Below are positions 601 to 31,234 of a stretch of 64,000 bases of DNA, one piece after another. Under the pieces are notes generated by a model, which was given only the letters and a program-made list of their open reading frames with translations, was not told the origin of the DNA and ran no database searches. This stretch comes from an uncultured bacterium. GTDB lineage: Bacteria; Krumholzibacteriota; Krumholzibacteriia; Krumholzibacteriales; CAZTHK01. Every line of letters starts with the position of its first letter. Position 1 is the stretch's first letter. Both the position numbers and the translations under genes were made by a program. The stretch spans positions 99,486-163,485 of the forward strand of contig CAZTHK010000001.1 of assembly GCA_964613215.1 (NCBI GenBank), written 5' to 3'.

Positions 601-742
601 ATATTAGTCCGGGGCTGCCGCAGGGCAGGCCCGGTGTTATAAGACAGGGCATTAACCAGGCCGGGAAAACCTGCGGGGGGGGGTCAATGAATGTATGGTC
701 AAACTTTGCCCCGGCCTGATTATTGATCAGTCATACTGTGTT

Positions 743-3747: not shown

Positions 3748-3772
3748 TCCGGCCGTACTACCGCCGTATACA

Positions 3773-15046: not shown

Positions 15047-16354
15047 ATGGAAAAGCAAATTCCGGAGAATAAATATGATGTACTGGTGGTAGGGGGTGGA
15101 ATAGCGGGGCAGGAGGCTGCTCTCAATATGGGGAACCTGGGCTACCGGGTCCTCCTGGTGGAGAAGGACCTCTCCATAGGGGGGAAGATGATCCTTTTGA
15201 GCAAGGTTTTTCCCACCCTCGATTGTGCCGCCTGTATCGCCACACCTAAGATGTCGGAGACGGCAAGGCATCCCAATATATCCATTTATACCAACAGCCG
15301 TATCAGGGGGATCAGAAAGAACTCAGATGAATCTTTTCAGGCCGGTCTGGTGATTAAGCCCCGGTATGTGGATGAGAAAGCCTGCACCGGATGTCAGGAC
15401 TGCGAAGAGGTATGCCCGGTGGTGGTAAGAGATCAGTATCAGTATGATCTGGTAGGGCGGAAGGCGGCTTTTATACCCTTCAGTGTTGCCAGCCCCCGGA
15501 TAGCCAGCATAGATATTGACAACTGCATACTCTGCGGGGCATGTGAGAAGGCCTGCCCTGCCGGTGCCATAGATTTCAGCAGGGAAGAAGAGGAGATACC
15601 GGTCAGGGTTAAGTCGGTGATACTGGCTACCGGTTTTCACCTCTTCGATCCCACTCAGATGGAACGGTACGGCTACGGGAAGTATAGGAATGTAATAACC
15701 TCCATGCAGATGGAGAGACAGCTGGTCCCAACCAGGCCCTACAACAACGTGCTCAGGCCGGGGGACGGCAAGATGCCGGATGATATAGCTTATGTTCTTT
15801 GCACCGGATCGAGGGATGACACGGTTGGCACACCGATATGCTCCCAGATATGCTGCATGTATTCCATAAAACAGGCTCAACTGATAATGGGCGCTCTGCC
15901 CATGGCGGATGTGACAATATACTATATTGATATCAGGGCCTTCGGAAAGGGATTCGAAGAATTCTACAACCAGGCCAGGGATATGGGGGTTTCATTCATC
16001 AAGGGGAAGATAGGAGAGATCGAGGGAGAGGTTGATGGCGATCTTACCCTTAAGTATGAGGATGTTGAAACCAGCACCTACCGGGAGGCTCAGCACGATA
16101 TGGTGGTGCTGTCGGTAGGGGTAATGGCAAACCGCGATCCGGCCGGATTCTTCCGTGAGAGGGCTCTGGAGCTGGATCAGTATGGATTTGTCAGGCAGTT
16201 GGATGAGCTTGCCAATCCTGCCAGAACCAGTATCGAAGGGGTGTTTGCCGCCGGGACGGCTACAGCACCAATGGATATACCGGATTCCATAGCATCAGCC
16301 GGTGCGGCTGCGGCGGAGGCGGCGGGCTACCTGAAATCGAAGGGGATAAAATGA
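15047..16354 (+). CDS. HdrA-type FAD/Fe-S flavoprotein, QmoA-like
   Basis: FAD fold VLVVGGGIAGQEAA. HdrA non-cubane cluster signature CTGSRDDTVGTPICSQICC. Inserted ferredoxin motifs CTGCQDCEEVCP and CILCGACEKACP. Confidence 0.85.
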   Translation: MEKQIPENKYDVLVVGGGIAGQEAALNMGNLGYRVLLVEKDLSIGGKMILLSKVFPTLDCAACIATPKMSETARHPNISIYTNSRIRGIRKNSDESFQAGLVIKPRYVDEKACTGCQDCEEVCPVVVRDQYQYDLVGRKAAFIPFSVASPRIASIDIDNCILCGACEKACPAGAIDFSREEEEIPVRVKSVILATGFHLFDPTQMERYGYGKYRNVITSMQMERQLVPTRPYNNVLRPGDGKMPDDIAYVLCTGSRDDTVGTPICSQICCMYSIKQAQLIMGALPMADVTIYYIDIRAFGKGFEEFYNQARDMGVSFIKGKIGEIEGEVDGDLTLKYEDVETSTYREAQHDMVVLSVGVMANRDPAGFFRERALELDQYGFVRQLDELANPARTSIEGVFAAGTATAPMDIPDSIASAGAAAAEAAGYLKSKGIK

Positions 16355-18309
16355 GGGAGAGGATCGGAGTATATATATGCCACTGTGGTTCCAACATATC
16401 CGATTATGTTGATGTGGAGGCGGTAAGGGAGGCGGTGTCCGGAGAGGAGGGTGTGGCCCTTGCTAAAACCACCATGTTCGCCTGTGCCGATTCGGCCCAG
16501 AGTGAGATGGTAAGTGATATAAAGGAGAATCAGCTGGATGGCCTGGTGGTTGCTTCATGCTCTCCCAAGCTCCACCTCTACACCTTCAGAAATGTGGCTG
16601 AGAGGGCCGGGTTGAATCCATTCAACTATGTTCAGGCAAATATAAGAGAGCAGGTTTCCTGGGCTCATTCCGACAGGCCCGAACAGGCCACCCGCAAGGC
16701 CATCCGGGTGGTGAAATCGGCCATTTCCAGGGCGAGGCTGTCAAAGCCGCTGACCCCCCCCACCATATCATCCGAAAATGTGGTTCTGGTAGTGGGTGCT
16801 GGAGTAGCAGGGATGAGGACCGCCATAGAACTGGCCGATATGGGATCCCATGTTTACCTGATAGAGAAGGATCATTTTGCCGGCGGCAGGGTTGCTCAAT
16901 GGGGAGGAGTGTACGGAACCGATGAGAGGGGGTATGAGATAACTGCCAGGCTGTATGATGAGGTAAAGGCAAGGGATAGAATTAATCTTTTCACCGGTAC
17001 CGGGATAGAATTTGTATCGGGAAGTGTGGGCAACTTCGAGGTAACCCTGAAGAAGCATCCCCGCAATTTTTCGCAGGAGGGAGTTGATACGGATACTCCG
17101 GAATTCAGGGAGAAGCTGTCCCGGGCCATGGAGGCCTGCCCCGAAGAAGTACCCGATCCCTTTGATTTCGGGCTGACCGGCAGAAGGGCCATTTATCCCA
17201 ATCATCCCGGGCAGTATCCGGCCATCCCTGCCATAGATGGTCAGGCCTGTACCCGCTGCGGCAAGTGCGAGGAGATACTTCCGGGGGTTGACCTGAATCA
17301 GGAGGAGGAATCGATCACTGTCAGTGTGGGAGCAATTGTGCTGTGCACCGGTTTCGATCCCTACCAGCCATCCCACGGGGAATTCGGCTACGGTGAGATA
17401 GATAATGTTATAACCCTTCAGGAATTCAGAAGGCTGATCTCACTGAGTGAGGGTGGCAAGCTGACCTATAATAACAGAAGGATAAATAATATTTCCTATA
17501 TATACTGTGTGGGAAGCAGGCAGATAGAGGGGGAGAATAAATACTGTTCCAGATACTGCTGCTCTTCGGCAATCTACACTGCCATTATGGCCGGGGAGAA
17601 GTTCAAGGATATCAAGAACTTCCATTTCCACAGGGGGATAAGAAGCTACGGCAAACAGGAGTCACTGTACCAGGAATCATCCGCCAGTGGGGATATATAT
17701 TTCCAGTGCTCTGACGATGAGATTCCCAGTGTGGGGCAGGATGGTGGTGAAACGGTGGTAAAGATAAACGATATATTGACTTCTGGAAGGGAGATAGAGG
17801 TTGAGTCGGATCTGGTGGTTCTGGTAACCGGGATGGAGCCCGGAAGCAATGGCACCCTGGTTGACCTTCTGAAAGTTCCCCTGGGCAGGGACGGTTTCTT
17901 CAATGAGGTCCACCCCAAGTTGAAACCGGTGGAGATTGTTATGGACGGTATCTTTATTGCCGGCACCTGCCATTCACCCAAGAATATTACCGAGACCATG
18001 AACTCCGCCCTCTCCGCCGCAGTTAAGTCTAATTCACTGATAAGTGCAGGCGAGATCGAACTGGAACCGGCTATGGCCCGGATCGACCCGGCCCTGTGCG
18101 AATGGTGCGGGAAGTGCAGTGAAGCTTGCCCCTTCGATGCTATCATAAGGGAAGAAGCTGAAGATAAAGTGATCGCCTCTGTGAGTGAAGCTAACTGCAA
18201 GGGATGCGGGATGTGCCTCCCGGTGTGTCCGGTGAATGCCATCCAGTTGACCGGCAATTCCGATGCAGAGATAGAGAGCATGATAGACGCTCTGATACAG
18301 CAGGAATAG
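16351..18309 (+). CDS. HdrA-type FAD/Fe-S flavoprotein, QmoB-like (lacks fused MvhD domain)
   Basis: ATGA overlap with the preceding gene. FAD fold VVLVVGAGVAGM. HdrA signature CVGSRQIEGENKYCSRYCC. C-terminal 2x[4Fe-4S] motifs CEWCGKCSEACP and CKGCGMCLPVCP. TAG stop. Confidence 0.85.
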   Translation: MRERIGVYICHCGSNISDYVDVEAVREAVSGEEGVALAKTTMFACADSAQSEMVSDIKENQLDGLVVASCSPKLHLYTFRNVAERAGLNPFNYVQANIREQVSWAHSDRPEQATRKAIRVVKSAISRARLSKPLTPPTISSENVVLVVGAGVAGMRTAIELADMGSHVYLIEKDHFAGGRVAQWGGVYGTDERGYEITARLYDEVKARDRINLFTGTGIEFVSGSVGNFEVTLKKHPRNFSQEGVDTDTPEFREKLSRAMEACPEEVPDPFDFGLTGRRAIYPNHPGQYPAIPAIDGQACTRCGKCEEILPGVDLNQEEESITVSVGAIVLCTGFDPYQPSHGEFGYGEIDNVITLQEFRRLISLSEGGKLTYNNRRINNISYIYCVGSRQIEGENKYCSRYCCSSAIYTAIMAGEKFKDIKNFHFHRGIRSYGKQESLYQESSASGDIYFQCSDDEIPSVGQDGGETVVKINDILTSGREIEVESDLVVLVTGMEPGSNGTLVDLLKVPLGRDGFFNEVHPKLKPVEIVMDGIFIAGTCHSPKNITETMNSALSAAVKSNSLISAGEIELEPAMARIDPALCEWCGKCSEACPFDAIIREEAEDKVIASVSEANCKGCGMCLPVCPVNAIQLTGNSDAEIESMIDALIQQE

Positions 18310-18313
18310 AAAA

Positions 18314-18589
18314 GTGAGTGAGAATAGAACAGTAGATATAATGAAGAAGAAGAGAAAGGTCCCCGGAGAAGTGAGGGAGGGGATGAAGAATTTCAACCGG
18401 ATCAAGAAGACCATTCTCGAGGTCCTCAGGGAGGGTCCGGCTACCATTCCCGGGATTGCCGGCAAGACAGGAATGTCTCAACATATAGTGACTTATCACC
18501 TTATGACAATGATGAAGTATGGAGTGGTGGAGGCGGACAGGCCGGATGATATGGATGAGTATTATTATTACAGAGTGAAGGAAAATTGA
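18314..18589 (+). CDS. Small winged-helix DNA-binding protein (possibly only 68 aa, from the ATG at 18383, which has a strong RBS GAGGGAGGGG)
   Basis: HTH-like …TIPGIAGKTGMSQHIVTYHLMTMMKYGVVEA…. It sits 4 nt after the qmoB-like gene and 1 nt before the qmoC-like gene. Confidence 0.55.
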   Translation: MSENRTVDIMKKKRKVPGEVREGMKNFNRIKKTILEVLREGPATIPGIAGKTGMSQHIVTYHLMTMMKYGVVEADRPDDMDEYYYYRVKEN

Positions 18590-18590
18590 T

Positions 18591-19757
18591 ATGGCTCGAA
18601 TCGACCACAAGTTTGCTTCACAGATCGAGGAATTCGGAGGGATTGATTTCACCGCCTGTTACAATTGCGGCAACTGCACTGCAGTTTGCCCTCTGGTTGA
18701 GGAGAACAGTTCCTTTCCCCGGCGGATGCTGAGGTATACTATCCTGGGCCTGGAGGAGGATATCCAGGGCTCCCTGGATCCCTGGCTGTGCTACTACTGC
18801 GGTGATTGCAGCGAGACCTGCCCCCGCCAGTCCAACCCGGGGGAGATAATGATGTCCCTGAGGAGATACCTCACCTCGGTCTATGACTGGACCGGCTTTT
18901 CCAGGAGGTTCTACACCTCGAAGGTGTGGGAGCTGGGATCAATAGGAGCAGTGGCAGCTATGGTAGTGATACTGTTTGCAATCTTTCTTCCCCCTACTGC
19001 CGATCCGGCCAATCTTATAAATTCCGCCGGAGGAGTAAGGATAAACAGTTTCGTTAAGGGTATGGAGGGTGAAACATTCGTCAGTGTCATAGAACTGGGT
19101 GACTGGGTAATGGCTGCCATAGTATCATTCTTTCTGCTCTCTAACATCTTCAATATGTATCTGAAGGTGGTTATTAAGAACAAAAAGGTAAAGATCCCCC
19201 TCCATCTATATGTAAAGGAGGCCTGGAACCTCTTCTATCATTTTGGCACCCAGATAAGGTTGTCCAGATGCACGGATAAATCATACTGGGCCCTTCACTG
19301 GCTGCTGATGTCCGGATATACTATTATGTTTACCATGATTGTTGTTTTTCTGCCCTGGTTCCAGGTGGAAAAGGTCCATCCCGTCACTCACCCCCAGCGT
19401 ATTCTGGGCTACTATGCAACCTTCGGCCTTCTCTTCGCCATTGCCATCTGGATGATAAGGAGGATCAGAAAGAGGGATGAGAAACACCGCTATTCCCATT
19501 CCACCGACTGGATATTTCTGATAATGCTCTTTCTTACCACCCTGACCGGAATCATGGTTCACCTGTTCAGGATAAACGGAATGATATATTTCACCTACTA
19601 TACCTACGTGATACATCTGGCTGTTCTGGTACCCATGCTGGTGCTGGAAGTCCCCTTCTCCAAGTGGTCTCACCTGGCATACCGGCCCTTTGCCATGTAT
19701 TTCAATAACCTGATTAACTCCGCCGTTATTATTGATGATAAGAAGCGACAGGGTTAA
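18591..19757 (+). CDS. QmoC-like membrane subunit: HdrC-like 2x[4Fe-4S] domain fused to HdrE/NarI-like di-heme-b membrane domain
   Basis: N-terminal CYNCGNCTAVCP and CYYCGDCSETCP motifs, then about 6 TM helices bearing conserved His (HWLL, VHLF, IHLAV, SHLAYRP). Confidence 0.75.
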   Translation: MARIDHKFASQIEEFGGIDFTACYNCGNCTAVCPLVEENSSFPRRMLRYTILGLEEDIQGSLDPWLCYYCGDCSETCPRQSNPGEIMMSLRRYLTSVYDWTGFSRRFYTSKVWELGSIGAVAAMVVILFAIFLPPTADPANLINSAGGVRINSFVKGMEGETFVSVIELGDWVMAAIVSFFLLSNIFNMYLKVVIKNKKVKIPLHLYVKEAWNLFYHFGTQIRLSRCTDKSYWALHWLLMSGYTIMFTMIVVFLPWFQVEKVHPVTHPQRILGYYATFGLLFAIAIWMIRRIRKRDEKHRYSHSTDWIFLIMLFLTTLTGIMVHLFRINGMIYFTYYTYVIHLAVLVPMLVLEVPFSKWSHLAYRPFAMYFNNLINSAVIIDDKKRQG

Positions 19758-19872
19758 ATGCAGGGGTCAGGGCGTTAATTTAGGCCTCCCTCCCTGCTTC
19801 TCCTCCTGTAAAAGACGATACTTCGATGGCGGTTATGCCTGCTAATCATATTACCCTTAACCATTTTTGATG

Positions 19873-19902
19873 TTGACATTTATTATATGAATGTGATACA
19901 CT
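19873..19902 (+). promoter_or_regulatory. Putative sigma70 promoter of the secreted-protein island: -35 TTGACA (19873-19878), 18-nt spacer, -10 TACACT
   Basis: Perfect -35 hexamer in the AT-rich 265-nt intergenic region. The -10 matches consensus at 4/6 positions. Confidence 0.3.
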
Positions 19903-20024
19903 ACGTATTGTCGAGTAAGTAAATTGGTATCTCCGGTATTAAGGACGGCGGAAGGAGGTAAGTAATTCGTTGTTCTTTTAACCTTAAGTCCCGAACCTGT
20001 CCAAAGGTTTAGGAGGTTAAAGAA

Positions 20025-20678
20025 ATGTTCAAAGTAAAAGTCTTGGTTTTTTCACTGTTGCTTGTTTTCGCAACTAACGTGTTCGCTGGTGATGTGGACC
20101 CGTGTGAAAGCGAAACTGGACAGAGCTGTTCGCCTATGATGCTGAACATTTGTCCTTTCGGCGACATGGAGAATATTTTCGAGAGTTGTACAACAGCCAT
20201 AGAAGATACCCATTACGTATACATCTATGTGAGAGATGTGTTAGGTAATGGCGTAGCTGGTATTCCGGGCTCGGATTACTGGCTGGGCGCTTGTGACAGC
20301 CAGTATGATCTCTGCCTGTGTGCCGAACCCATTGTAGCCGATTATATCACCAACGACGAAGGCTACACTGAGTTTTCAGGCACAATCGCCGGCGGCGGTT
20401 GTGTGAACAGTGGCGGAATCTATATAGCAGTTCAGGGTAAGATCATCCAGGAAGCTGGATGCACAGGTTATGACTGTGTGGACATGATAATCAAGAGTCC
20501 CGATCTTACAGCAGACTGTCAGGTCAACCTCTCAGATCTCAGTGCATTCGGTCTGACATACACATTAAGCTCAGGTGATACTGACTATAATAGTTGTGCA
20601 GATTACAATGATGATGACTCTGTTAATCTGAGTGACCTGTCGTTTTTCGGAATTCATTATCTGCACACATGCCAGTAA
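20025..20678 (+). CDS. Secreted Cys-rich protein with C-terminal dockerin (type I-like) module
   Basis: Signal peptide MFKVKVLVFSLLLVFATNVFA. Two 12-residue Ca-binding-loop repeats, DLTADCQVNLSD and DYNDDDSVNLSD, each followed by LS(A/F)FG. Strong RBS AGGAGG. Confidence 0.75.
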   Translation: MFKVKVLVFSLLLVFATNVFAGDVDPCESETGQSCSPMMLNICPFGDMENIFESCTTAIEDTHYVYIYVRDVLGNGVAGIPGSDYWLGACDSQYDLCLCAEPIVADYITNDEGYTEFSGTIAGGGCVNSGGIYIAVQGKIIQEAGCTGYDCVDMIIKSPDLTADCQVNLSDLSAFGLTYTLSSGDTDYNSCADYNDDDSVNLSDLSFFGIHYLHTCQ

Positions 20679-20784
20679 TGGTATGACCGGTGTATGATAA
20701 TTATTTCCAACAATCCTGATTTGCTATTTTTAAATTAGTTGGATTACACCTTAGGGCTGCATTAAAATACGGGAGTTGGAGACT

Positions 20785-21339
20785 ATGAAGAGAGTACTGT
20801 TGACAATTGCTATGGTTCTCCTAATTCCAGGAGTGATCAACGCACAGACCATGGGTGTCTACTTCGACGGTCCGGGGCAGATGGCATATTCTCCCTCGGG
20901 TGCGTTTGTATTATTCGACGCTTACATATATCTGCATGAAGCGGATTACTATGTAACCGGCGCCGAATATCAGCTGCAGACACCTGAAGATCCGGAGCAC
21001 ACTTACTTTAGTTTCCAGAGTATAGAGTATCCGGATAACATGTCGGTTAATCTGGGTGATCCCTGGGCAGGCCATTCTATTTCTTACTGGCCGCCGTTAA
21101 ATGGGTATGAACCTGGCTATAACCTGCTGCTCACTCTTAAGGATTGCTACATTACAGGGCCTTGCGACTGGACTGATTATCCTATCGTTATAGGTCCTCA
21201 TCCTGCAAACGGAGGACCGTGGATCGCTTACACACCTGATAATGAATTAGCTCTCGTTATTGGGTACACTTCGATTCTTTGCCCTGTGATTGGTACCCAG
21301 GAGGAAAGCTGGGGCGCCATCAAATCGATGTATGAATAA
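20785..21339 (+). CDS. Secreted protein, distant paralog of the two downstream genes; ends …EESWGAIKSMYE
   Basis: Signal peptide MKRVLLTIAMVLLIPGVINAQ. Shares its architecture and the invariant C-terminal tail with 21510..22052 and 22221..22763. ATG 20785 is preceded by GGGAG. Confidence 0.75.
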   Translation: MKRVLLTIAMVLLIPGVINAQTMGVYFDGPGQMAYSPSGAFVLFDAYIYLHEADYYVTGAEYQLQTPEDPEHTYFSFQSIEYPDNMSVNLGDPWAGHSISYWPPLNGYEPGYNLLLTLKDCYITGPCDWTDYPIVIGPHPANGGPWIAYTPDNELALVIGYTSILCPVIGTQEESWGAIKSMYE

Positions 21340-21509
21340 ATTTCTTGGAACTGTGGCTGGATGAGGATTTCATCCAGCCACGGACCCGGGAAGACGGAAG
21401 GGAGGTGGTGCCTATTGGAGAAATCTGATTAAACTCGCCACCAAAACTCTTCCTGTTTTAAAGCGGGTAAAGAAAGAGAGCGAATCAAGTTTTAAGGAGG
21501 ACACTAAAA

Positions 21510-22052
21510 ATGAAAAAGGTTTTATTGCTAACTGTTGCGATACTTATGTTTTCCAGCTTAGCAATAGCTCAGAATCCTCCGCAGGGATACATTGGAATTT
21601 TTGCGGATGAAACCAAATCGAGCAATTGCTACGAGGGCGATCTAATGGCACCTATGTACATGTACATCTGGTGCCTGCCCAGTGAGTATGGGCAGATGGC
21701 TGCCGAGTTTATGGTTACTTATCCTGCTAATGTTATCACAAGTACCGTAACTGCAGCTCCTCATATCGCAGTATCCATGGGAGATCTGGCCTCAGGTATC
21801 AGCTACAGCTACACGGAATGCCAGTGGGACTGGCACTGGGATTACAAGCAGCTGATGTATGTTACTGACTCCAGCGGCACCCAGGTAGATATAGTGGCTC
21901 ATCCCGATGTGGGAACCTATCAGTTCTCGAACTGTGAAGACGGTTTCCCCATTGAGCCATGCATCTATTACACCCCTCTGTACCTGAATGTCTGTGGTCC
22001 GACCGGGACCGACGATGCCAGCTGGGGTGCTATCAAGGGTATGTATGAATAA
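21510..22052 (+). CDS. Secreted 6-Cys protein of unknown function, paralog B; ends …DDASWGAIKGMYE
   Basis: Signal peptide MKKVLLLTVAILMFSSLAIAQ, RBS AAGGAGG, and about 85% aa identity to 22221..22763. Confidence 0.8.
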   Translation: MKKVLLLTVAILMFSSLAIAQNPPQGYIGIFADETKSSNCYEGDLMAPMYMYIWCLPSEYGQMAAEFMVTYPANVITSTVTAAPHIAVSMGDLASGISYSYTECQWDWHWDYKQLMYVTDSSGTQVDIVAHPDVGTYQFSNCEDGFPIEPCIYYTPLYLNVCGPTGTDDASWGAIKGMYE

Positions 22053-22098
22053 TTCATGCCTTAGATGTTAAAACGGGCTTGAATGTCCGGAAAATTAA

Positions 22099-22130
22099 AA
22101 GGAGGGGGTTTGAAACCCCCTCCTTCTGTT
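22099..22130 (+). terminator. Stem-loop AAGGAGGGGGTT-TGAA-AACCCCCTCCTT followed by CTGTT (weak U-tract)
   Basis: Perfect 12-bp inverted repeat 46 nt after the stop of paralog B. Confidence 0.5.
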
Positions 22131-22220
22131 AACGAGGTGATTGAAGAGGTTTTCTGATAAAGTTGTTAAATCCGTAGTTAGTTTAGACAGTTTGTTAAGC
22201 AACAAAGAGAGGGATCGAAA

Positions 22221-22763
22221 ATGAAAAAGGCTCTACTTCTTGGTGTGGCGCTGCTGCTGGTTTCCAGCATGGCGCTGGCTCAGCTTCCTCCACAGGGTTA
22301 CATTGGGATCTATGCGGATGAAACCAGATCGAGTAATTGCTACGATGGCGATCTAATGGCACCTATGTACATGTACATCTGGTGCCTGCCCAGTGAGAAT
22401 GGGCAGATGGCTGCCGAATTTATGGTCACTTATCCTGCTAATGTTATCACAAGTACCGTAACTGCAGCTCCCCATATCGCAGTATCCATGGGAGATCTGG
22501 CCTCAGGGATCAGCTACAGCTACACGCAATGTATGTGGGATTGGCACTGGGATTACAAGCAGCTGATGTATGTTACTGACTCCAGCGGCACCCAGGTAGA
22601 TATAGTGGCTCATCCCGATGTGGGAACCTTTCAGTTCTCGAACTGTGAAGACGGTTTCCCCATTGAGCCATGCATCTACATCACTCCTCTGTATTTGAAC
22701 GAATGCGGCCAGGTTGGCGCAGATGAAAGCAGCTGGGGTGCTGTCAAGAGCATGTTCGAATAA
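22221..22763 (+). CDS. Secreted 6-Cys protein of unknown function, paralog C; ends …ESSWGAVKSMFE
   Basis: Signal peptide MKKALLLGVALLLVSSMALAQ and a strong RBS. A canonical terminator follows it. Confidence 0.8.
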   Translation: MKKALLLGVALLLVSSMALAQLPPQGYIGIYADETRSSNCYDGDLMAPMYMYIWCLPSENGQMAAEFMVTYPANVITSTVTAAPHIAVSMGDLASGISYSYTQCMWDWHWDYKQLMYVTDSSGTQVDIVAHPDVGTFQFSNCEDGFPIEPCIYITPLYLNECGQVGADESSWGAVKSMFE

Positions 22764-22794
22764 GCATAATTCATAAATGGTAATGCTTTTTCAA

Positions 22795-22830
22795 GGGAGG
22801 AGAGTTGCAATATCTCCTCCCTTTTTTATT
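22795..22830 (+). terminator. Rho-independent terminator: GGGAGGAGA-loop-TCTCCTCCC + TTTTTTATT
   Basis: 9-bp GC-rich stem with a 9-nt loop and a T6 tract, 32 nt after the stop of paralog C. Confidence 0.8.
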
Positions 22831-23063
22831 CGTATGGTTTTCCGGAGAGAAATCACATATCAGCGGCGCAGTGAAAATATTCATCTCTTCCACTGCAATA
22901 AAAACTTTTACAGCCGTTCAATAATGGTTATATTCATGCTATAATAAGAAGAGTGCCAATTCGAACGGTGCATCCGTTTTTGACAGCATTACCCCGCTGT
23001 ATAGACCTGTAAAAATATGAGAAGGCTGTTGAATCCATCCCCTGGAAAGAGAGGCAGGAAACA

Positions 23064-26000
23064 TTGAAGAGCCGGGGAATTTTTTATAACCTGGGGCCGG
23101 GTTTGATCCTTGCCGTTTTATTTTTATCCATCTTTACAATCAATGGTTATGGAGAGGTCCATTCCCTCAGCTCCGGCAGTGGCAGAATCAGTTTCAGGAT
23201 AACCGTTCCCCCGCCTCGACTTGTTCCCGCCGGGAAGGACGGAATAAGAGTGTTGCTGGAAGGATATGGCAGTTTTTCTCCACCGGGTGCAATTGAACTG
23301 CCCGGCAGGACCTTCCGGTTGGCTATACCTCCGGGGGTCAGTCCGGGACTTTCTTACACTGTAATGGAAAGCAGCGATCTGGGAGAATTAGAAATTGCCC
23401 GGGTATCCGGTGAGAAGATGATTCAGAATGAAGATGGAACCGTTTCATACCGTTCCTTCATGCCACCCGACCCATGGGAAGATAAAAACCTTCCCCCCCC
23501 TGTAAGGACAGGAGAACCCGGATACATGGGGCATCAGCGGGTTCTTCCCATAGAGGTATCTCCTCTGCAGATAAGCAGCGGCGGCAGGGTGACCCTGGTG
23601 CGGGAGATCAGTTTAAGGGTAAGTTATAACCGGACACCTGATGAGATGGGAAGTGCCGACGGACTAATTCAGAAACCCTCAAAAGCCTGGCAGAGGCTGT
23701 ACAGAAATACCCTGGTTAATCCGGGTGATGTTTCCAGGTTCATCCGGCCGCTTAAACAGAGGAGGGTTAGGGAATCTGGCTTTCAGGCGGAGAAGAGGCT
23801 CAAAATCCGCATTCCTGAAACTGGTATCTACAGTATAAGAGCAGATTCCCTTATTAGTGCGGGTATGTCGGTTGGGCTTACCACCGGGTTCTTCTCCCTC
23901 AGGCAGTACTACTATGATGAATCAGAACCTGATTTGCTGAGGAGTGAAGAAATCCCCATCCTGATAGATGAGGGGGAAAATGGGGTAGAGGGTATTTTCG
24001 ACAGCAATGACAGGCTCATCTTCTATGCCCGGGGTATAAAGGACGATCCGGATGCAGGTGATACAGAAGCAGCTTTTACCGATTATAATGTGGCCTGGCT
24101 GGAAGAGGAAGTGCCCGGTTCAATTATGGGGGAGGGCCCGGAACTTCCTGACACTGCCGGTTATCAGTCCCCTCAGTACAGAGCGGTCAAGAAGCTGAGA
24201 GATGACAGTTTCTTTCTGAAATACCCCATTCCCAATACCACGGACTTTTATTTCATCTCCAGTATGCCCGGTGGAAGAAGTGTTCAGCTTCCCTTACAGA
24301 TCGAAGAACCGGCCGGGGAAGGTGATTTTTCCCTGACCGTTACACTCCAATGGTTTAATGTCACTTCACCTCAGAACATCAACTTCGAGATAAGCAATTC
24401 CGGCGGTACCAGGGAGATGGGATCAGGTATACTTGATGTGGAAGAAAAAAAGAGCTTTACCTTTCAGGGTCTGGATGTGGATTGGCTGGTGGATGGAACC
24501 AACCAGCTTATCATAACCAGTAACATCAGAACCGGCTTCCTGGTGGATGAAGTGAGGATAGATTATCATTCCCGGTGGGTGGCCAGGGATAACTCTCTGG
24601 AGTTCGAGTACGGGCCCAGCATATCAGACAGAGAATATAATATTGAGGGATTTGCCACTGATTCAGGCTGCCTGATAGATGTAACCGATCCAGAAAATCC
24701 TACCTGTAATGAACTAACCGCGGAATATTTCCAGCAGGAGGGGGAAAGCTACACTTTGAATATATATCTTCCGGCCGGGGAGCGGAGGCATTTTATAGTC
24801 ATAGGGGAAGATGGTGCTGCGGAGCTGCCTCTCTCCCATGTTTCCCTGCATCTTCCGGCCCATCTGAAGGAGCAGGGTGGACCCTATAACAGCCTGGTGA
24901 TTACCCATCCCCGGTTTCGATCCCGCCTCAGTGAATATGTATCCTGGAGAGAAGACCAGGGTTATCGCATTCTTACTGCCACGGTGGGTCAGATCTACGA
25001 TGAATTCAATGGGGGCAGGCCTCACTGCAGAGCGATCAAACGGTTTATCCAGTATGGTTTTGATTACTGGGGGGTGGAGTTTGTTCTTCTGGCAGGCGAT
25101 GCCAGCGAGGATCACAAGCGTGTCTTTACCAGGGATTCTCCCTATACCTCCTCGGATGGTTCCGGGGAGGATTTTGTTCCTTCCTATACCTACTGTCCCC
25201 GGGTATCTTCCTCGGTTAAGGATGAAGTGGTAGCTTCGGACAAGTGGTATACCTTCCTGGATGTGGAAGGGCAGGACAGGCTTCCCGATGTTTTTATCGG
25301 CCGCATACCGGTGGGGGAGGAGATCGAACTAAGGGCTTATCTTAACAAGCTTTATAGTTTTGAGGAACCCGGGGTCAGCCAGAGCTGGCGCAGGCGCATA
25401 GTGCTGATGGCGGACGATGCCTGGTCCATAAACGGCGATTACCGCTACAACGCCTATGAAAATCAGTTTCGTTACGGTATGGATACCGTGGCAGTGAGAA
25501 TAGAGGAAGCCCTGCCGGGTGGATTTGATATAGATAAGAAGTATCTGTCATATGTCACCGATCAATTTCATCCCAACCAGACCGAGCATGGAGCTTATGT
25601 ACATACCCGGTCGCGTGATTCCACCAGAGCCTACTATACTCCCCGGCTGGTCAGGAGTCTTAATGAGGGAGCGCTTTTCCTTGCCTTCCAGGGGCATGCC
25701 ATGAGGAGAGGACTTACCAGTGAAGGGGCCTTTATGACCGGGGCGGAGTATGACGATCAGGACAGCCTCAGGGTGTTTGGACTCCAACACATATTCCTGG
25801 GATTTGGATGTCACATCAACGAGTTTGCCAAGGCCAAAGAGATGGATTTTGTTTATGACGGTCCCAACGGAGATTGTTTCAGTGAGCAGCTGATGGTAAA
25901 GGCGGGAGCGGGAGCAATCGCCGCTTATGCCAGTTATACCTTCGAGTATCTGGATCAGAATAAGAGACTATGTAACACCTTTCACCGGATGCTCTTTCAG

Positions 26001-27107
26001 GAACCGCCATCGGATTCCATAGGACCGGCCAACCGCTATACCGGAGCCCACTGGACCCTGGGAGAGGCCTTTACCGGAGCAGAGATAGAGCATATGGGTA
26101 CCTCCACCTACGGGTATAACCAGGTGTTCCGTTATCAGCTGCTGGGAGATCCCATGACCGGTATCGATACCGGTCCTCCCCTTATGGCCATGGAGGTGGA
26201 CTGGGGAAGTGGTTGGAGGAGTGTGGAGCCTGGTTCACTCAGGGCGGAGGATGGAAGCAACCGGGGAAAATTCAGGTTTACCGCCAGTGATGTGGTTGCC
26301 CTGGGGGGTGTGGGACTGGAGGTTGATGGACGGGACTGGACCGATTCATTGACTATTACGGTCAACCCTGAAGATGAGGGAAAGACCTTTGCCAGAAGAT
26401 ATGCCGCCGAATTCGAACATACTCTTTCCCTGGAAGATCAGTATTTTCTGTTTCGGGTATTCGGGGTAAACGACAGTATTACTGGAAGGTTGGAGTATCC
26501 TGTAACCACCGCTGTAAGTATGTTCTATGGTGAGGATTTCGAGGTAACTCCAACCGTGGAGGCTCCCCCCTCCGGAACCTACACCATCAGGGTGAAGTTT
26601 CCCATTTATATTGATTCAAGTCCCAGCTTACTCCTGGATGGAAAACTTTTCGAGGAGGGCGAGCTGGCTCAGTCGGCCGGTGATTCCAGGTCCTGGGAGT
26701 CGGAGTTTTCCACCTCCTTCCAGCCGGGAGAGCATGTTTTCACCGTAGAGGTTGGGGAATACAGGGAAGATTTCATGTTTACAGTGGCCGGGGAGCGGGT
26801 TGTTCTGGAGACCTTCTGTTTTCCCAATCCCTTCAAAGAGGGCACCAATATTGTTTACACTCTTAATCAGAGGGTGGAATCCGGCAGGTTGAATATTTAC
26901 AATGTCAGCGGAGTTAAAATCAGAAGTTTCAGGCTGGATGGAAGGGGAGTGGATGCGGCAAGTTACATCCGGCCTCATTCTATTTACTGGGATGGAAGAG
27001 ACTTCACGGGGGAGGCTGTGGCTAATGGAACATATATATATCTGTTGAAGGTTAACCGGGGAAGCTCAGAGTATCAGATAAAGGGTAAAAGTGTGAAATT
27101 GGAATAG
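23064..27107 (+). CDS. Peptidase C25 (gingipain/PorU-like) family protein with C-terminal T9SS-type/FlgD-Ig-like sorting domain
   Basis: Signal peptide. C25 catalytic region (…HPRFRSRLSEYVSWREDQGY…VLLAGDA…FQGHAMRRG…GFGCHINEF). Last 80 aa carry …FCFPNPFKEGTNIVYTL…LNIYNVSGVKIRSF…YWDGRDFTGEAVANGTYIYLLKV…. TTG start, TAG stop. Confidence 0.85.
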   Translation: MKSRGIFYNLGPGLILAVLFLSIFTINGYGEVHSLSSGSGRISFRITVPPPRLVPAGKDGIRVLLEGYGSFSPPGAIELPGRTFRLAIPPGVSPGLSYTVMESSDLGELEIARVSGEKMIQNEDGTVSYRSFMPPDPWEDKNLPPPVRTGEPGYMGHQRVLPIEVSPLQISSGGRVTLVREISLRVSYNRTPDEMGSADGLIQKPSKAWQRLYRNTLVNPGDVSRFIRPLKQRRVRESGFQAEKRLKIRIPETGIYSIRADSLISAGMSVGLTTGFFSLRQYYYDESEPDLLRSEEIPILIDEGENGVEGIFDSNDRLIFYARGIKDDPDAGDTEAAFTDYNVAWLEEEVPGSIMGEGPELPDTAGYQSPQYRAVKKLRDDSFFLKYPIPNTTDFYFISSMPGGRSVQLPLQIEEPAGEGDFSLTVTLQWFNVTSPQNINFEISNSGGTREMGSGILDVEEKKSFTFQGLDVDWLVDGTNQLIITSNIRTGFLVDEVRIDYHSRWVARDNSLEFEYGPSISDREYNIEGFATDSGCLIDVTDPENPTCNELTAEYFQQEGESYTLNIYLPAGERRHFIVIGEDGAAELPLSHVSLHLPAHLKEQGGPYNSLVITHPRFRSRLSEYVSWREDQGYRILTATVGQIYDEFNGGRPHCRAIKRFIQYGFDYWGVEFVLLAGDASEDHKRVFTRDSPYTSSDGSGEDFVPSYTYCPRVSSSVKDEVVASDKWYTFLDVEGQDRLPDVFIGRIPVGEEIELRAYLNKLYSFEEPGVSQSWRRRIVLMADDAWSINGDYRYNAYENQFRYGMDTVAVRIEEALPGGFDIDKKYLSYVTDQFHPNQTEHGAYVHTRSRDSTRAYYTPRLVRSLNEGALFLAFQGHAMRRGLTSEGAFMTGAEYDDQDSLRVFGLQHIFLGFGCHINEFAKAKEMDFVYDGPNGDCFSEQLMVKAGAGAIAAYASYTFEYLDQNKRLCNTFHRMLFQEPPSDSIGPANRYTGAHWTLGEAFTGAEIEHMGTSTYGYNQVFRYQLLGDPMTGIDTGPPLMAMEVDWGSGWRSVEPGSLRAEDGSNRGKFRFTASDVVALGGVGLEVDGRDWTDSLTITVNPEDEGKTFARRYAAEFEHTLSLEDQYFLFRVFGVNDSITGRLEYPVTTAVSMFYGEDFEVTPTVEAPPSGTYTIRVKFPIYIDSSPSLLLDGKLFEEGELAQSAGDSRSWESEFSTSFQPGEHVFTVEVGEYREDFMFTVAGERVVLETFCFPNPFKEGTNIVYTLNQRVESGRLNIYNVSGVKIRSFRLDGRGVDAASYIRPHSIYWDGRDFTGEAVANGTYIYLLKVNRGSSEYQIKGKSVKLE

Positions 27108-27251: not shown

Positions 27252-27962
27252 TTGAGAAAACGACTGGAAAAGATCGCCGGTAAGGATAAGCGCGTAATTA
27301 TAGGGATAACCACGGGTAATCCCCCCTACCGGCCTGGGGCTGCAATAGTGGAAGTGAGCGGCAATGGTGAAAAGACCGTTCTGGATCTTCATTACTTTCA
27401 CAGTATCTCTTTACCGGCTGATTTTATCAAAGCGGTAAAGGCACTCGACCGTGGAGCGGAGTTTGACAGGGAGGATATGACCGGGATCAGCTTTCTTCTG
27501 ATGCACAGCCTTTCCAATCTGGTTCAGACTCTGCTTGATCTGATTCAGGCGGATAATTCAGATGTTGATCTGATAGGGCTTAAATGCCTGGAGGTAAGTG
27601 GCAAGATACTACCCCAGGATCTGACCGCTTTCAGCGAGATGACCGGTAACATCGTGGCCAGCAAATTTGGTGTAGTTACCGGGGGTGAGGGGGATGACTA
27701 TCTTTCTCTGAACCAACAGCTTTTTTACGGTATGGTCGGCGATATGGTGGAAAAATACGGGCTGGAGGATGATGTAAGGGAAGCGGTGGGAGTGGCTCTG
27801 CTGGCCAATGAATCTTTATTCTATGAAAGCAGCAAAGAACGCGGGGAAGAGGAGAACGGAGACGAATATGGGGGCAGGTTGAGCCTGCAGACGGTTAAGA
27901 GGACCGGGGATAGAGACCGGTCCCTGCTCCGGGGACAGTTTTTCTTTCCCAGTGACGACTGA
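27252..27962 (+). CDS. Hypothetical protein; N-terminus weakly resembles anhydro-N-acetylmuramic acid kinase (AnmK), possibly a truncated or divergent copy
   Basis: TTG start after GGAGGGG. The segment RVIIGITTGNPPYRPGAAIVEV resembles the AnmK GxMSGTSxDGxD motif. At 236 aa it is much shorter than AnmK, which is about 370 aa. Confidence 0.4.
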   Translation: MRKRLEKIAGKDKRVIIGITTGNPPYRPGAAIVEVSGNGEKTVLDLHYFHSISLPADFIKAVKALDRGAEFDREDMTGISFLLMHSLSNLVQTLLDLIQADNSDVDLIGLKCLEVSGKILPQDLTAFSEMTGNIVASKFGVVTGGEGDDYLSLNQQLFYGMVGDMVEKYGLEDDVREAVGVALLANESLFYESSKERGEEENGDEYGGRLSLQTVKRTGDRDRSLLRGQFFFPSDD

Positions 27963-28017
27963 GGAGCCCGGGACAATATAATATTTCACCGTTTTGATAG
28001 AATTTATACAACCATAA

Positions 28018-29364
28018 ATGAGACATAATAATAGTGATATTACCATAGGGTACAGTAATCACGATTCAGTGAAGAAAACCACCTTAATCCTTTTCAGTTA
28101 TGCCATCATATTTTTTCTTCTTTATTCCTGCGTGGGACCGGGGATGCCGGAAAGACCCCTTCCTGATGAAGAGCCGGTGATACCATCGGCGGCACCGGGG
28201 GAACCGCCTCTGGTCAGGGTACTGGTGGGCAGGGCCAGTAGCAGGGTACGTATAATTGCCCAGGGTGGTGTTTCGGTGGGAAAGGGTCCGGCTATGGTTC
28301 CCCTCAGAAGTTTCAGGGAGGGAGGTACCTTTATCTTCAGGTCCGGTGCAGGAGTGGTGGCCGGGTATGCGGGGAACAAGTATCTGATGGAGGATGAGGT
28401 ACTGGCGATACATCCCCACGGGGGGGGGAGGGTATTTCTAAACGGTAGACCATACAGGGGTGGATTTATACTCAGGCTATCGGGGAAGGGGGTAATAGCC
28501 ATAAACGTTCTGGAGGTGGATGATTACATAAAGGGAGTGCTCCCTGCTGAAATAGGATATCTGGATGATTCTCAGTACCAGGCGTACCGGACTCAGGCTA
28601 TTGCCGCCAGAACATACGCTCTCAGCAAGTTGAAAGAGAAAAAGAACCGTCTCTTCGATTTGAGGGCAACTGTAATGGATCAGGTGTACCGGGGAGTAAA
28701 GGGGGAAATGCCCACCGCTTCAGAGGCGGTGGAGGATACCAGGGGGTTGGTATGTCTCTGGAAGGGGAAGCCGGCAAGGGCTTACTATTGCGCTTGTTGT
28801 GGAGGCCATACGGCCGATATAAGGGTGGGATGGTCCTGGAAGGAATCCTATCCCTACCTGTACGGAGTGAGGGATACGGCGGGAAATAATAACCCCGGCT
28901 CTCTTTGCCGCTATTCAAGTCATTTTCGCTGGAGAGAGAGTTGGACCGGAAGGGAGTTGGAGAGGATGTTCAGAGAGACCCTTCCCGCCGAGTTGGGTGT
29001 TGAGAGGAGCAGGGTGGGCAGGCTGCGGGATATAAGAATAGGGGGCTATGCCCGCAGCGGAAGGGTGAGGAAATTGATGATTTATACCGACCGGGGAGAT
29101 TTCCGGGTGGAGGGTGACCGAATAAGGTGGGTGCTGATGAGGGATGTTGGCTCAGGTGCTATTTTGAGAAGTACCCTGTTTAAGATGAAGGTTTTCAGAA
29201 AAGATGGGGTGGTGAGAGAGGTTCGTATCAGGGGGGGTGGAAATGGCCACGGTGTAGGGATGTGCCAGGCTGGTGTTATAAGAATGGCCGAACTGGGCTA
29301 TGCCGCTGAGGAGATTCTCACCCATTACTATCCCGGTGTGAATATCGATTATTATTACCGGTGA
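28018..29364 (+). CDS. SpoIID/LytB-domain protein (lytic transglycosylase/amidase-enhancer family)
   Basis: SpoIID-domain signature …YLDDSQYQAYRTQAIAARTYALSKL…CCGGHTAD…, with an N-terminal lipoprotein-like signal. Confidence 0.85.
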   Translation: MRHNNSDITIGYSNHDSVKKTTLILFSYAIIFFLLYSCVGPGMPERPLPDEEPVIPSAAPGEPPLVRVLVGRASSRVRIIAQGGVSVGKGPAMVPLRSFREGGTFIFRSGAGVVAGYAGNKYLMEDEVLAIHPHGGGRVFLNGRPYRGGFILRLSGKGVIAINVLEVDDYIKGVLPAEIGYLDDSQYQAYRTQAIAARTYALSKLKEKKNRLFDLRATVMDQVYRGVKGEMPTASEAVEDTRGLVCLWKGKPARAYYCACCGGHTADIRVGWSWKESYPYLYGVRDTAGNNNPGSLCRYSSHFRWRESWTGRELERMFRETLPAELGVERSRVGRLRDIRIGGYARSGRVRKLMIYTDRGDFRVEGDRIRWVLMRDVGSGAILRSTLFKMKVFRKDGVVREVRIRGGGNGHGVGMCQAGVIRMAELGYAAEEILTHYYPGVNIDYYYR

Positions 29365-29368
29365 CCAT

Positions 29369-31009
29369 ATGATTGATGATGTTATAAAAGGTGTATCCCC
29401 CCATATGATTGCGGGGGTGAAGGGTCCATCTCTGACCGAAAGGGAAATCGATCTCTTTTCTCTGTATCCCCCCGGAGGAATTATTCTTTTCAGCCGTAAC
29501 GTAAACGGCAGGGATCAGTTGAATAATCTTACCGGAGAGATAAACGAGATCATAACCAGGAGTTCCGGCAGGGCTCCCATTATTGCCGCCGACCACGAAG
29601 GAGGGATAATTTCAGTTCTGGCGGAGGCAACAGGTGTTCCTCCTTCTGCTCTGGCGATGGGTAAAGTGGAAGATAAGGAGGTCAGGTTACAGGTATACCG
29701 GGATAGTGCCAGGCTTCTGAAGGGTTGCGGGGTGAATTTACTGCTTGCTCCGGTTGCTGATGTAAATTCTGAGCCCCTCAATCCGGTGATAGGCCAGAGG
29801 GCTTTCGGGGAGGAGGTGGATTTGGTTTCTTCCATGGTTGCTGAGTTCGTCGCTGTCATGCGGCACCATGGTATAGGTACCTGCCTGAAGCACTTCCCCG
29901 GTCATGGATCATCCCGCCAGGATTCACATCTGACCCTTCCCCGTCTTGATAGGTCACTCCATCAGATGATGGAGAGCGATATGATTCCCTTTATCCGGGG
30001 GATGGAGCGAGGTGCCGATTCAGTAATGATAGGTCATCTGCTTCCAGCCGGGAGGGATCTTCCCTGTACCATCGATAGATATGTAGTGGAGGGATTGCTC
30101 CGGAAGAAATTCTGTTTTGAAGGTATAATTCTTACCGATGCCATGGAGATGAAGGGCATCTCCGGAACAGGCAGAGCTGGAGATAATGCTGCAGGAGACT
30201 ACTCCCTGATCGAGCTGATCTCTCTGGCATTGAGAGCGGGTAACGATGCAGTGCTCCTCTCCGGGCCCTACCGGGAAGTTACAGATATGTTGATCAGTTC
30301 CGGCCATTCCGGGATTGACTGGCCGGAACGCATCTATGAATCGGAGGGGAGGCTTAATAGCTTCAGGGACCATCTGGGTGATAATGATAACGAGCCCGGC
30401 CGGGGTATTGAAGAGCTGTCCACTCCCCCGGAAAGGGAGGTTGCTGGTGTTAGATTCGGCGGAAGGATAGATTTGTATCCTTCTTCTTACAGAGTGGCGG
30501 CGGAGGAATCGGTGAAGTTGCTTGAACCTGCCGGTATTTTCCTGCCCCTCCCAGGGCCCGGGGATGTGTTGCTGGATTTTGTGGGGGAAATGGATGATTT
30601 TGAGAATGTGCCGGTAAAGAGATTTATCCGGTTGATTCTGAACAGGTGGGAGGAAGTGGCAGGGAGGAGGCACAGATCTGATCCGGGGCTTAATAATTTA
30701 GATTCATTCCCTTCACCCCTGGCGCTTTGCCCGGATGAACGGACCCCTTCAAAAAAAAATGAAGCTCCTCTGTATAGTTTCAGGGAGGGGAAAATGGAAG
30801 ATCCCGGCGCAGTGATAGTCTTTCTGCTCAACCGGAGGCCGCTGGAAAAGAATATGGTGGATAGGGTAATTCATCATGCGGATATAGTGGTGGTGGGAGG
30901 ATGGCATTATGCTTCTGAACTGGTCGGGCCGGAGAAGTGCCTTCTGATAAGTTATGGGATTTTTGATGCATCGGCTGATGTAATCGGATCTATCCTTGGT
31001 ATAGGCTAG
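29369..31009 (+). CDS. nagZ: GH3 beta-N-acetylhexosaminidase (NagZ-like) with C-terminal extension
   Basis: GH3 N-terminal domain with the KHFPGHG motif and the catalytic region …ILTDAMEMKGI…. Confidence 0.85.
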   Translation: MIDDVIKGVSPHMIAGVKGPSLTEREIDLFSLYPPGGIILFSRNVNGRDQLNNLTGEINEIITRSSGRAPIIAADHEGGIISVLAEATGVPPSALAMGKVEDKEVRLQVYRDSARLLKGCGVNLLLAPVADVNSEPLNPVIGQRAFGEEVDLVSSMVAEFVAVMRHHGIGTCLKHFPGHGSSRQDSHLTLPRLDRSLHQMMESDMIPFIRGMERGADSVMIGHLLPAGRDLPCTIDRYVVEGLLRKKFCFEGIILTDAMEMKGISGTGRAGDNAAGDYSLIELISLALRAGNDAVLLSGPYREVTDMLISSGHSGIDWPERIYESEGRLNSFRDHLGDNDNEPGRGIEELSTPPEREVAGVRFGGRIDLYPSSYRVAAEESVKLLEPAGIFLPLPGPGDVLLDFVGEMDDFENVPVKRFIRLILNRWEEVAGRRHRSDPGLNNLDSFPSPLALCPDERTPSKKNEAPLYSFREGKMEDPGAVIVFLLNRRPLEKNMVDRVIHHADIVVVGGWHYASELVGPEKCLLISYGIFDASADVIGSILGIG

Positions 31010-31156: not shown

Positions 31157-31234
31157 GGGGTCGTAGTTCAGATTGGTTAGAACGCCGGCCTGTCACGCCG
31201 GAGGTCGCGAGTTCGAGTCTCGTCGGCCCCGCCA
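31157..31234 (+). tRNA. tRNA-Asp (anticodon GTC), encoded CCA
   Basis: Manual cloverleaf: 7-bp acceptor GGGGTCG/CGGCCCC, D-arm, anticodon stem CCGGC/GCCGG with loop CTGTCAC, T-arm GCGAG-TTCGAGT-CTCGT, discriminator G, then CCA. Confidence 0.95.

Follow-up and report, generated by a model that had tools for sequence, protein, structure and literature searches.

The window analysed here, a stretch of 64,000 nucleotides whose positions are used throughout, contains four genes for secreted proteins: D217, with a C-terminal dockerin, and three small proteins of predicted cohesin-like fold, one A-type and two B-type. They are followed by a gene for a PorU-like C25 peptidase and by a conserved downstream block. 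The features of the region and the evidence for each are compiled in the table below.

Features of the cohesin-fold locus and its surroundings in the 64-kb window.
Position	Strand	Feature	Observations
19873..19902	+	Promoter-like site (TTGACA, 18-nt spacer, TACACT, with TG)	In the 267-bp AT-rich spacer upstream of the first gene; 10 of 12 matches in a consensus scan; pattern match only
20025..20678	+	D217, secreted 217-aa protein	Signal peptide, Cys-rich Ig-like (possibly X-module-like) beta-sandwich, C-terminal dockerin with two Ca-loop/helix repeats (residues about 160-211)
20785..21339	+	A-type protein of predicted cohesin-like fold (184 aa from ATG 20785)	Ends in EESWGAIKSMYE (tail codons 21301-21336); listed as 187 aa from TTG 20776 among the ORFs; 26% identical to the B-type proteins and aligns with them; distinct conserved subfamily, 47-55% identical between genomes
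21342..21392	+	Strong hairpin after the A-type gene	14-bp perfect inner stem, no T-run; -34.7 kcal/mol, z = -7.4
21510..22052	+	B-type protein 1 of predicted cohesin-like fold (180 aa)	Ends in DDASWGAIKGMYE (tail codons 22014-22049)
22099..22125	+	Hairpin after B-type gene 1	12-bp stem, weak T-run; -21.8 kcal/mol, z = -3.2; terminator-like on both strands
22221..22763	+	B-type protein 2 of predicted cohesin-like fold (180 aa)	Ends in ESSWGAVKSMFE (tail codons 22725-22760); tandem paralogue 86% identical to copy 1, 88% at the nucleotide level
22793..22831	+	Intrinsic terminator closing the group	11-bp GC-rich stem at 22793-22823, 9-nt loop, then TTTTTTATT; -19.2 kcal/mol, z = -5.0
23064..27107	+	PorU-like Peptidase_C25 protein (1347 aa)	Weak T9SS-type C-terminal domain (FlgD_ig / Por_Secre_tail, below cutoff); Pfam Peptidase_C25 at 8e-61; NCBIfam T9SS sortase PorU (NF033707) at 3e-54, but 184 bits against a cutoff of 420; only PDB sequence hit PorU 6za2_A at 2.8e-9
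27252..31009	+	Conserved downstream block: 236-aa protein of unknown function (27252-27962), SpoIID-like protein (28018-29364), GH3-like protein (29369-31009)	Syntenic with the cluster, functional link not shown; no Pfam or PDB hit for the 236-aa protein
31157..31231		tRNA	Only Rfam match in a search of the long spacers for known RNA elements

The first-pass annotation had described this region as a low-GC island of four Cys-rich secreted proteins, three of them sharing an invariant C-terminal dodecapeptide, and the observation was confirmed in its main points. The start of the A-type gene at ATG 20785 is supported by homologues and by independent gene calls from Logan, where the same organism appears in runs SRR7048219, SRR7048227 and SRR7048228. 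In a six-frame motif scan of the window only the three cohesin-fold ORFs ended in the motif, the only other hit (28239-28262, minus strand) lying inside the SpoIID gene region and not being a C-terminal tail. However, only the core SWGA(I/V)K.M(Y/F)E is shared, not a full invariant dodecapeptide, and the term Cys-rich fits the first protein (13 Cys) better than the others (3, 6 and 6). The N-terminal hydrophobic helices of the four proteins end in VFA-G, INA-Q, AIA-Q and ALA-Q, respectively. Shine-Dalgarno sequences of the AGGAGG type are visible before 20025 and 21510, whereas those before 20785 (GGGAG) and 22221 (GAGAGGG) are weaker.

Regarding base composition, the region 19758-22830 has a GC content of 0.460 compared to 0.512 for the window, and only 1.8% of the sliding windows of the same size are as low. 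The dip comes from 1.0 kb of AT-rich spacers (GC 0.36-0.46) and from a low GC3 in the first two genes (0.47-0.48 vs. 0.60 +/- 0.05). The order dockerin protein, cohesin-fold proteins, PorU-like C25 peptidase, 236-aa protein, SpoIID and GH3 recurs in Krumholzibacteriota genomes. The dockerin, A-type, B-type and C25 genes were found in this order in at least 7 genomes with different upstream flanks, the C25 gene lying directly downstream of the cohesin-fold genes in seven related loci, five of which also show the downstream block in the same order. The dockerin gene was always followed by a cohesin-fold gene. As the locus and its GC dip are conserved in four other genomes, with genomic GC contents of 57-68%, this is not a foreign island but a conserved, vertically inherited locus.

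To further characterise the encoded proteins, folds and profile matches were examined. In D217, two tandem segments with an EF-hand-like Ca loop followed by a helix were identified, DLTADCQVNLSD plus helix 169-178 and DYNDDDSVNLSD plus helix 202-211, with D160, D171, D193 and D204 invariant in 30 homologues. The sequence aligned to dockerin 2y3n_B in a profile search (E 5.6e-6), and the arrangement may be X-Doc-like, although no Pfam family, including the Dockerin model (PF00404), was detected at E<=1. The small tagged proteins show the nine-stranded flattened beta-sandwich with jelly-roll topology characteristic of cohesins, but they match neither the Pfam cohesin model (PF00963) nor any sequence in the PDB. 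Assignment to cohesins and dockerins rests on fold and on profile hits to solved structures.

The shared tail behaves as a separable module. It is predicted with a pLDDT below 50, and it is absent from multi-domain homologues of 600-2466 aa with 2-3 copies of the domain, in which matches are restricted to profile positions 1 to about 163 and the proteins continue with Big_5 repeats and a T9SS C-terminal domain. In an unbiased alignment of the family, W, G, A, I and K of the tail were near-invariant, which points to a specific reader.

To determine if the tail is private to this family, a degenerate DNA pattern scan was carried out, which returned 141 ORFs of at least 100 aa (137 non-redundant) ending in C-x(2-4)-[TSV]-[APGS]-[VT]-E-x-x-[ST]WGAIK-[AS]-M-[YF]-[RKED]. 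When 71 cores were clustered, taken from the strict-pattern ORFs plus the three window proteins, they fell into 22 BLAST clusters, including right-handed beta-helix/PMP-repeat proteins, a pectate lyase and MAM-like proteins. Of 165 relaxed motif hits, 158 lay 3-5 residues from a stop codon. It should be noted that the genome sample was ascertained with a pattern that fixes W-G-A-I-K-x-M and the stop codon, so that the sequence logo and the terminal position are partly circular, and that a few homologues carry the motif 5-10 residues from the end or internally. A Sec-type signal peptide was detected by a crude test in 48 of 58 full-length tagged ORFs, the 10 failures being possibly due to start-codon errors. 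Genuine tagged ORFs were found only in MAGs of Eisenbacteria, Krumholzibacteriota, Latescibacterota, Calditrichota and WOR-3 and in unnamed MAGs, with up to 6 per MAG even in an incomplete scan. No Pfam or NCBIfam model covered the tag when the four proteins, ten other tagged proteins and bare tag peptides were searched, and nothing relevant on the tag, on cohesins, dockerins or T9SS in Krumholzibacteria, or on C-terminal sorting in the candidate phyla, was found in the literature searched.

Interestingly, the tag is replaced by established sorting or anchoring domains in homologues of a second family as well. Among 70 homologues of a tagged beta-helix protein, 14 ended in the tag, 7 in a T9SS C-terminal domain, several in dockerin-like ends and one in a membrane-anchor tail. 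Proteins with a T9SS C-terminal domain also occur in the same genomes as tagged proteins. In contrast, when a conserved partner gene was sought next to tagged genes across 125 loci, the recurrent neighbours were housekeeping genes (amidohydrolase, AsnRS/AspRS-type tRNA synthetase, UvrD, TldD, HlyD-like) that reflect local synteny and not a shared partner.

The tail is the last part of a portable C-terminal tag of roughly 20 residues that follows the last disulfide-capable Cys of the folded domain, and the above results suggest that this tag acts as a surface-sorting or docking signal. It is proposed that after Sec export the unstructured tag is recognised by a protein partner that retains, attaches or assembles the cargo at the cell surface, the job done in homologous proteins by a T9SS C-terminal domain, a dockerin or a membrane-anchor signal, and that in this locus the tagged cohesin-fold proteins would additionally bind the neighbouring dockerin protein to form a small surface complex. 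The probability of this reading is estimated at about 0.6. No experiment or proteomic localisation exists for any tagged protein; that the tag is a sorting or docking signal, that a protein receptor reads it and that the PorU-like enzyme, the leading candidate, is that reader are inferences. The first-pass annotation had already proposed that the conserved C-terminus was a recognition, sorting or protein-interaction peptide, had taken the flanking dockerin and C25 proteins as signs of surface assembly and had suggested testing for a cohesin-like fold. Each of these points was supported, although the scope was underestimated, as the tag spans several phyla and is not specific to this locus.

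Compared to known cohesin-dockerin systems, there is no detectable sequence similarity to cohesins, the host belongs to a diderm FCB-type candidate phylum, the cohesin-fold proteins are mostly single-domain (about 160 residues plus the tag), the dockerin protein carries no enzyme, and anchoring would be through T9SS-type domains or the new tag rather than SLH domains or sortase. With the T9SS type A C-terminal domain (TIGR04183 / PF18962) of Bacteroidota, handled by the PorU sortase and the PorV shuttle, the tag shares its C-terminal position on Sec-exported surface proteins in the FCB group, its place in homologues and the adjacent PorU-like gene. However, the T9SS signal is a folded Ig-like domain of 70-100 residues, whereas the tag has 10-20 residues, is predicted to be disordered and gave no Por_Secre_tail, FlgD_ig or CHU_C hit on any tagged protein or tag peptide. 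As with the tripartite sortase-type signals (LPXTG, PEP-CTERM, MYXO-CTERM, GlyGly-CTERM and others), a short signature lies at the extreme C-terminus of many unrelated secreted proteins within particular lineages, several per genome, in a choice-of-anchor pattern, but the protein ends 4 residues after the invariant Lys, without a membrane-spanning segment or basic cluster, and no exosortase-, rhombosortase- or sortase-like partner was identified. As known sortase-type signals carry a membrane helix and T9SS signals are whole domains, a 10-20-residue signal of this kind has no precedent.

It is possible, though less likely, that the tag is specifically the substrate signal of the PorU-like peptidase, which would cleave within or before it and transfer the protein to a surface glycolipid, as PorU does with T9SS C-terminal domains, the cohesin-fold proteins being its most abundant cargo. 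PorU is a sortase-like transpeptidase for C-terminal signals (PMC8545088; PMC5562754), although removal of C-terminal signals and attachment of cargo to surface glycolipid are known only for P. gingivalis PorU (PMC8545088). In addition to the adjacency described above, small tagged proteins sit next to PorU-type C25 genes in a second phylum, Eisenbacteria, in two cases, and by a rough estimate a random 8-kb block should contain a given C25 gene well under 1% of the time. Nevertheless, most tagged genes, including those of many members of the cohesin-fold family, are not near a C25 gene, the Krumholzibacteriota cases are one inherited arrangement, so that independent events are few, and these genomes have ordinary T9SS C-terminal-domain cargo for PorU, which acts after T9SS translocation, while nothing shows that the tag can engage the translocon. 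More doubtful is a role as a mini-docking peptide for the cohesin-fold modules themselves, by which tagged enzymes would be displayed on T9SS-anchored multi-cohesin scaffold proteins and tagged monomers would chain head to tail. The scaffoldin-like multi-domain homologues without the tag, the presence of the tag on enzyme-like proteins, as dockerins are in cellulosomes, and a small residue (A, S or G) at position +6 in 88% of tails, giving a G-x-x-x-small packing face, are in its favour. However, a true dockerin protein is already encoded next to the cohesin-fold genes, and strong family hits are concentrated in Krumholzibacteriota-type loci, whereas many tagged proteins are from Eisenbacteria, where only one distant member was seen.

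A non-specific amphipathic helix lying in the plane of the membrane, like the C-terminal helices of some penicillin-binding proteins and without a protein reader, is unlikely. AF2 draws residues 168-179 as a helix, and the tail holds W, I, M and Y/F together with K and R, but this helix is within the low-pLDDT segment, its hydrophobic moment (0.29-0.46) was matched or exceeded by 24-33% of shuffles, the window's own tails end in acidic residues, and the near-invariance of S/T-W-G-A-I-K across phyla and unrelated passenger domains is more than lipid binding requires. Finally, a merely family-specific structural C-terminus of three paralogues on a horizontally acquired island, as the low GC content and the restriction of the motif to these genes within the window could indicate, is contradicted by the 22 clusters of tagged proteins in several phyla, by the untagged multi-domain homologues and by the conservation of the locus with its GC dip.

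A broader but more tentative reading is that the [ST]WGAIK-x-M-[YF]-x tail is the signal of a previously unrecognised sorting or attachment pathway in a group of FCB-related candidate phyla (those listed above), working in parallel with T9SS C-terminal domains, with the dockerin, cohesin-fold and PorU-like cluster as part of its machinery or its main structural cargo, a Gram-negative cellulosome-like surface scaffold built from sequence-orphan cohesins. LPXTG, PEP-CTERM and the T9SS C-terminal domain each opened up a secretion or anchoring pathway and made surface proteomes predictable from sequence, and this tag would do the same for several large uncultured phyla common in sediments and soils, where it already marks beta-helix proteins, a pectate lyase and MAM-like proteins that probably act on polymers outside the cell. 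Being unusually short and without a membrane segment, its mechanism cannot be a copy of the known ones. Noteworthily, the putative cohesin-dockerin pair occurs in a diderm lineage whose cohesins are invisible to sequence models, so that cohesin-based surface assemblies may be much more widespread than current annotation suggests; the cohesin-fold family has 1776 cluster representatives and no Pfam annotation.

The first-pass annotation had described a low-GC stretch with four genes for secreted proteins, three of them ending in a common C-terminal tail. Four ORFs on the same strand were identified, encoding a 217-aa protein (D217), an A-type protein and two B-type proteins that are 86% identical to each other, and the last three share the tail. 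When the 64-kb window was scanned in six frames, only these three ORFs ended in the motif, and the one other match to the search expression is not a C-terminal tail. The start listed for the second gene by ORF prediction would give 187 aa, but homologues begin with MKRVLL and independent gene calls give 184 aa, so the real start is the ATG, with GGGAG upstream. The coordinates of these and of other features are collected in the table.

Coordinates of the features identified in the window and in loci of Eisenbacteria
Sequence	Coordinates	Strand	Feature
Window	15047-19757		Heterodisulfide-reductase-like Fe-S/flavoprotein genes
Window	20025-20678		D217 (217 aa)
Window	20776-20787		Alternative starts of the A-type gene, TTG 20776 and ATG 20785
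Window	20776/20785-21339		A-type protein (184 aa from the ATG), ending in EESWGAIKSMYE
Window	21342-21392		Hairpin after the A-type gene (14-bp perfect stem, -34.7 kcal/mol, no T-run)
Window	21510-22052		B-type protein (180 aa), ending in DDASWGAIKGMYE
Window	21567-21572		Example of a signal peptide end
Window	22221-22763		B-type protein (180 aa), ending in ESSWGAVKSMFE
Window	27252-27962		236-aa protein
Window	28239-28262	minus	Other match to the tail motif
Window	31157-31231		tRNA gene
Window	44097-45704	minus	Rhomboid-family protease fused to TPR repeats
L057 (Eisenbacteria)	6463-7932		MAM-like protein with an internal copy of the tag motif
L086 (Eisenbacteria MAG)	3361-7999		Small tagged proteins next to a PorU-type C25 peptidase
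L117 (Eisenbacteria MAG)	1-6623		Small tagged protein next to a PorU-type C25 peptidase

The drop in GC content noticed in the first-pass annotation is real. The region has a GC content of 0.460 compared to 0.512 for the window, which places it in the lowest 1.8% of same-size windows, and the difference comes from long AT-rich spacers and from low GC3 in the first two genes. Shine-Dalgarno sites and signal peptides are visible, and in the cohesin-fold family the signal peptides end in A-x-A|Q, with Gln at +1 in most members. Each of the predicted cohesin-fold genes (A-type and B-type) is followed by a strong hairpin. The last of these is a classical terminator with a T-run, whereas the very strong one after the A-type gene might be a processing or stabilising element rather than a terminator.

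None of the four proteins has a Pfam or NCBIfam hit. An exhaustive profile search found 1776 cluster representatives at E<=1e-3. For D217, 168 homologues of 213-238 aa were detected, and a profile built from D217 and three locus homologues matched solved dockerins (2y3n_B, E 5.6e-6) and the X-module plus type II dockerin of CipA (2b59_B, E 2e-4). The model of D217 (pLDDT 83) is an Ig-like sandwich followed by two helices, each preceded by a DxNxDxxxxxxD-type loop. The downstream 1347-aa protein is a PorU-like C25 peptidase with a weak T9SS-type C-terminal domain.

To determine whether the locus was foreign, its gene order was compared with that of related loci. The same order, D, A, one or more B, PorU-like C25, a protein of about 236 aa, SpoIID and then GH3, recurs in the loci L003/L004, L005/L006, L009, L062, L085, L126 (Krumholzibacteriota GCA_016931295.1) and L127. 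The 236-aa protein, for which no Pfam or PDB match was found, is conserved between the PorU-like gene and SpoIID in every syntenic locus. In contrast, the upstream flank, which in the window consists of the heterodisulfide-reductase-like genes directly upstream of the cluster, differs in every syntenic genome, marking D217 as the start of the conserved block. Wherever a D217 homologue was seen, the next gene is a cohesin-fold gene. The cluster is 4-10 GC points below its flanks in four genomes of 57-68% GC, and therefore the dip is a property of the locus, which is conserved and not foreign. B-type paralogues are 61-86% identical within a genome (the window, L126, L001 and L062 were compared) but only about 45-50% identical between genomes, implying repeated lineage-specific tandem duplication or gene conversion. 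Some family members lie elsewhere, without a C25 neighbour, as in the loci L001 and L002.

In the family alignment, S, W, G and K of SWGAIK are invariant, with A and I nearly so, and this is the most conserved part of these proteins. To analyse whether the tail occurs on other proteins, one genome per species was scanned for DNA encoding SWGAIK-x-M-x-x-stop, revealing ORFs of about 150 to 790 aa that end in the tag. When the tag was removed, 71 proteins fell into 22 BLAST clusters, of which the largest corresponds to right-handed beta-helix/PMP-repeat proteins, whereas others include a pectate lyase and InhA-like MAM proteins; sixteen proteins belong to the cohesin-fold family. From 137 non-redundant tails the extended consensus C-x(2-4)-[TSV]-[APGS]-[VT]-E-x-x-[ST]WGAIK-[AS]-M-[YF]-[RKED] was obtained, in which the columns not fixed by the search pattern (E at -3, V/T at -4, Y/F, terminal R and the upstream Cys) are also conserved. 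With a relaxed motif, 158 of 165 hits lie 3-5 residues from a stop codon. As an exception to the usual position, the Eisenbacteria MAM-like protein of locus L057 carries an internal copy of the motif (VEHRSWGSIKASYR) inside an apparent insertion, plus a degenerate terminal one (SWQLIKEIAR). Of 58 full-length tagged ORFs, 48 pass a signal-peptide test, although this test is crude. Genuine tagged ORFs come only from MAGs of Eisenbacteria, Krumholzibacteriota, Latescibacterota, Calditrichota and WOR-3 and from unnamed MAGs, with up to six per MAG, whereas pattern matches in Niabella, Pseudomonas, Bacillus and similar genomes have no such ORF and are chance matches. No Pfam or NCBIfam model matches the tag, even as a bare peptide, and it is not contained in any of the papers searched.

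The exhaustive search also found giant proteins of 600-2466 aa with two or three copies of the cohesin-fold module, in which the matches stop at profile position about 163, so that they lack the tag. In these proteins the modules are followed by many Big_5 repeats and a T9SS type A C-terminal domain, a scaffoldin-like architecture in uncultured bacteria. A second family was examined through 70 homologues of a tagged Eisenbacteria beta-helix protein. Fourteen of them end in the tag, including the variants SWGRIKALFR, TWGRVKAEYR and SWSKVKSLY, seven end in a T9SS C-terminal domain, several in dockerin-like ends and one in a membrane-anchor tail. T9SS C-terminal-domain proteins occur in the same genomes. 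Thus, the tag occupies the slot that known surface-sorting or anchoring modules occupy in homologues, and this is the main argument for its putative function, which, as with all the functional assignments made here, is inferred from sequence, predicted structure and gene order.

The sequence invariance across unrelated passenger domains argues for a specific protein reader, whereas a simple in-plane membrane helix is unlikely, because the hydrophobic moment is no higher than in shuffled sequences. No common partner gene lies beside tagged genes in general. The best candidate for the reader is the PorU-like C25 peptidase, which follows the tagged genes throughout the Krumholzibacteriota-type loci. 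Interestingly, small tagged proteins again sit next to PorU-type C25 genes in Eisenbacteria, where two proteins of 214-220 aa lie directly upstream of a C25 gene in L086 and a distant cohesin-fold member lies two genes away in L117, one of these peptidases showing an unusual C25 + CARDB + FG-GAP/beta-propeller architecture. Nevertheless, independent events are few, so this specific version remains doubtful. Alternatively, the tag could dock onto cohesin-fold modules, giving a scaffoldin-like display, a possibility that is not excluded.

Compared to known systems, the locus appears to work like a cohesin-dockerin pair, although it fails the sequence-membership tests for cohesin and passes those for dockerin only through solved-structure profiles. 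Similarly, the tag would work like a C-terminal sorting signal, but it is not a folded T9SS domain and has no membrane helix or basic cluster. A more novel interpretation, that of a new sorting pathway with a Gram-negative cohesin scaffold, can be put forward only tentatively and is considered less likely than not. The only Rfam hit in the window, the tRNA gene, lies just after the GH3 gene in the lowest-GC kilobase (31-32 kb, GC 0.42).
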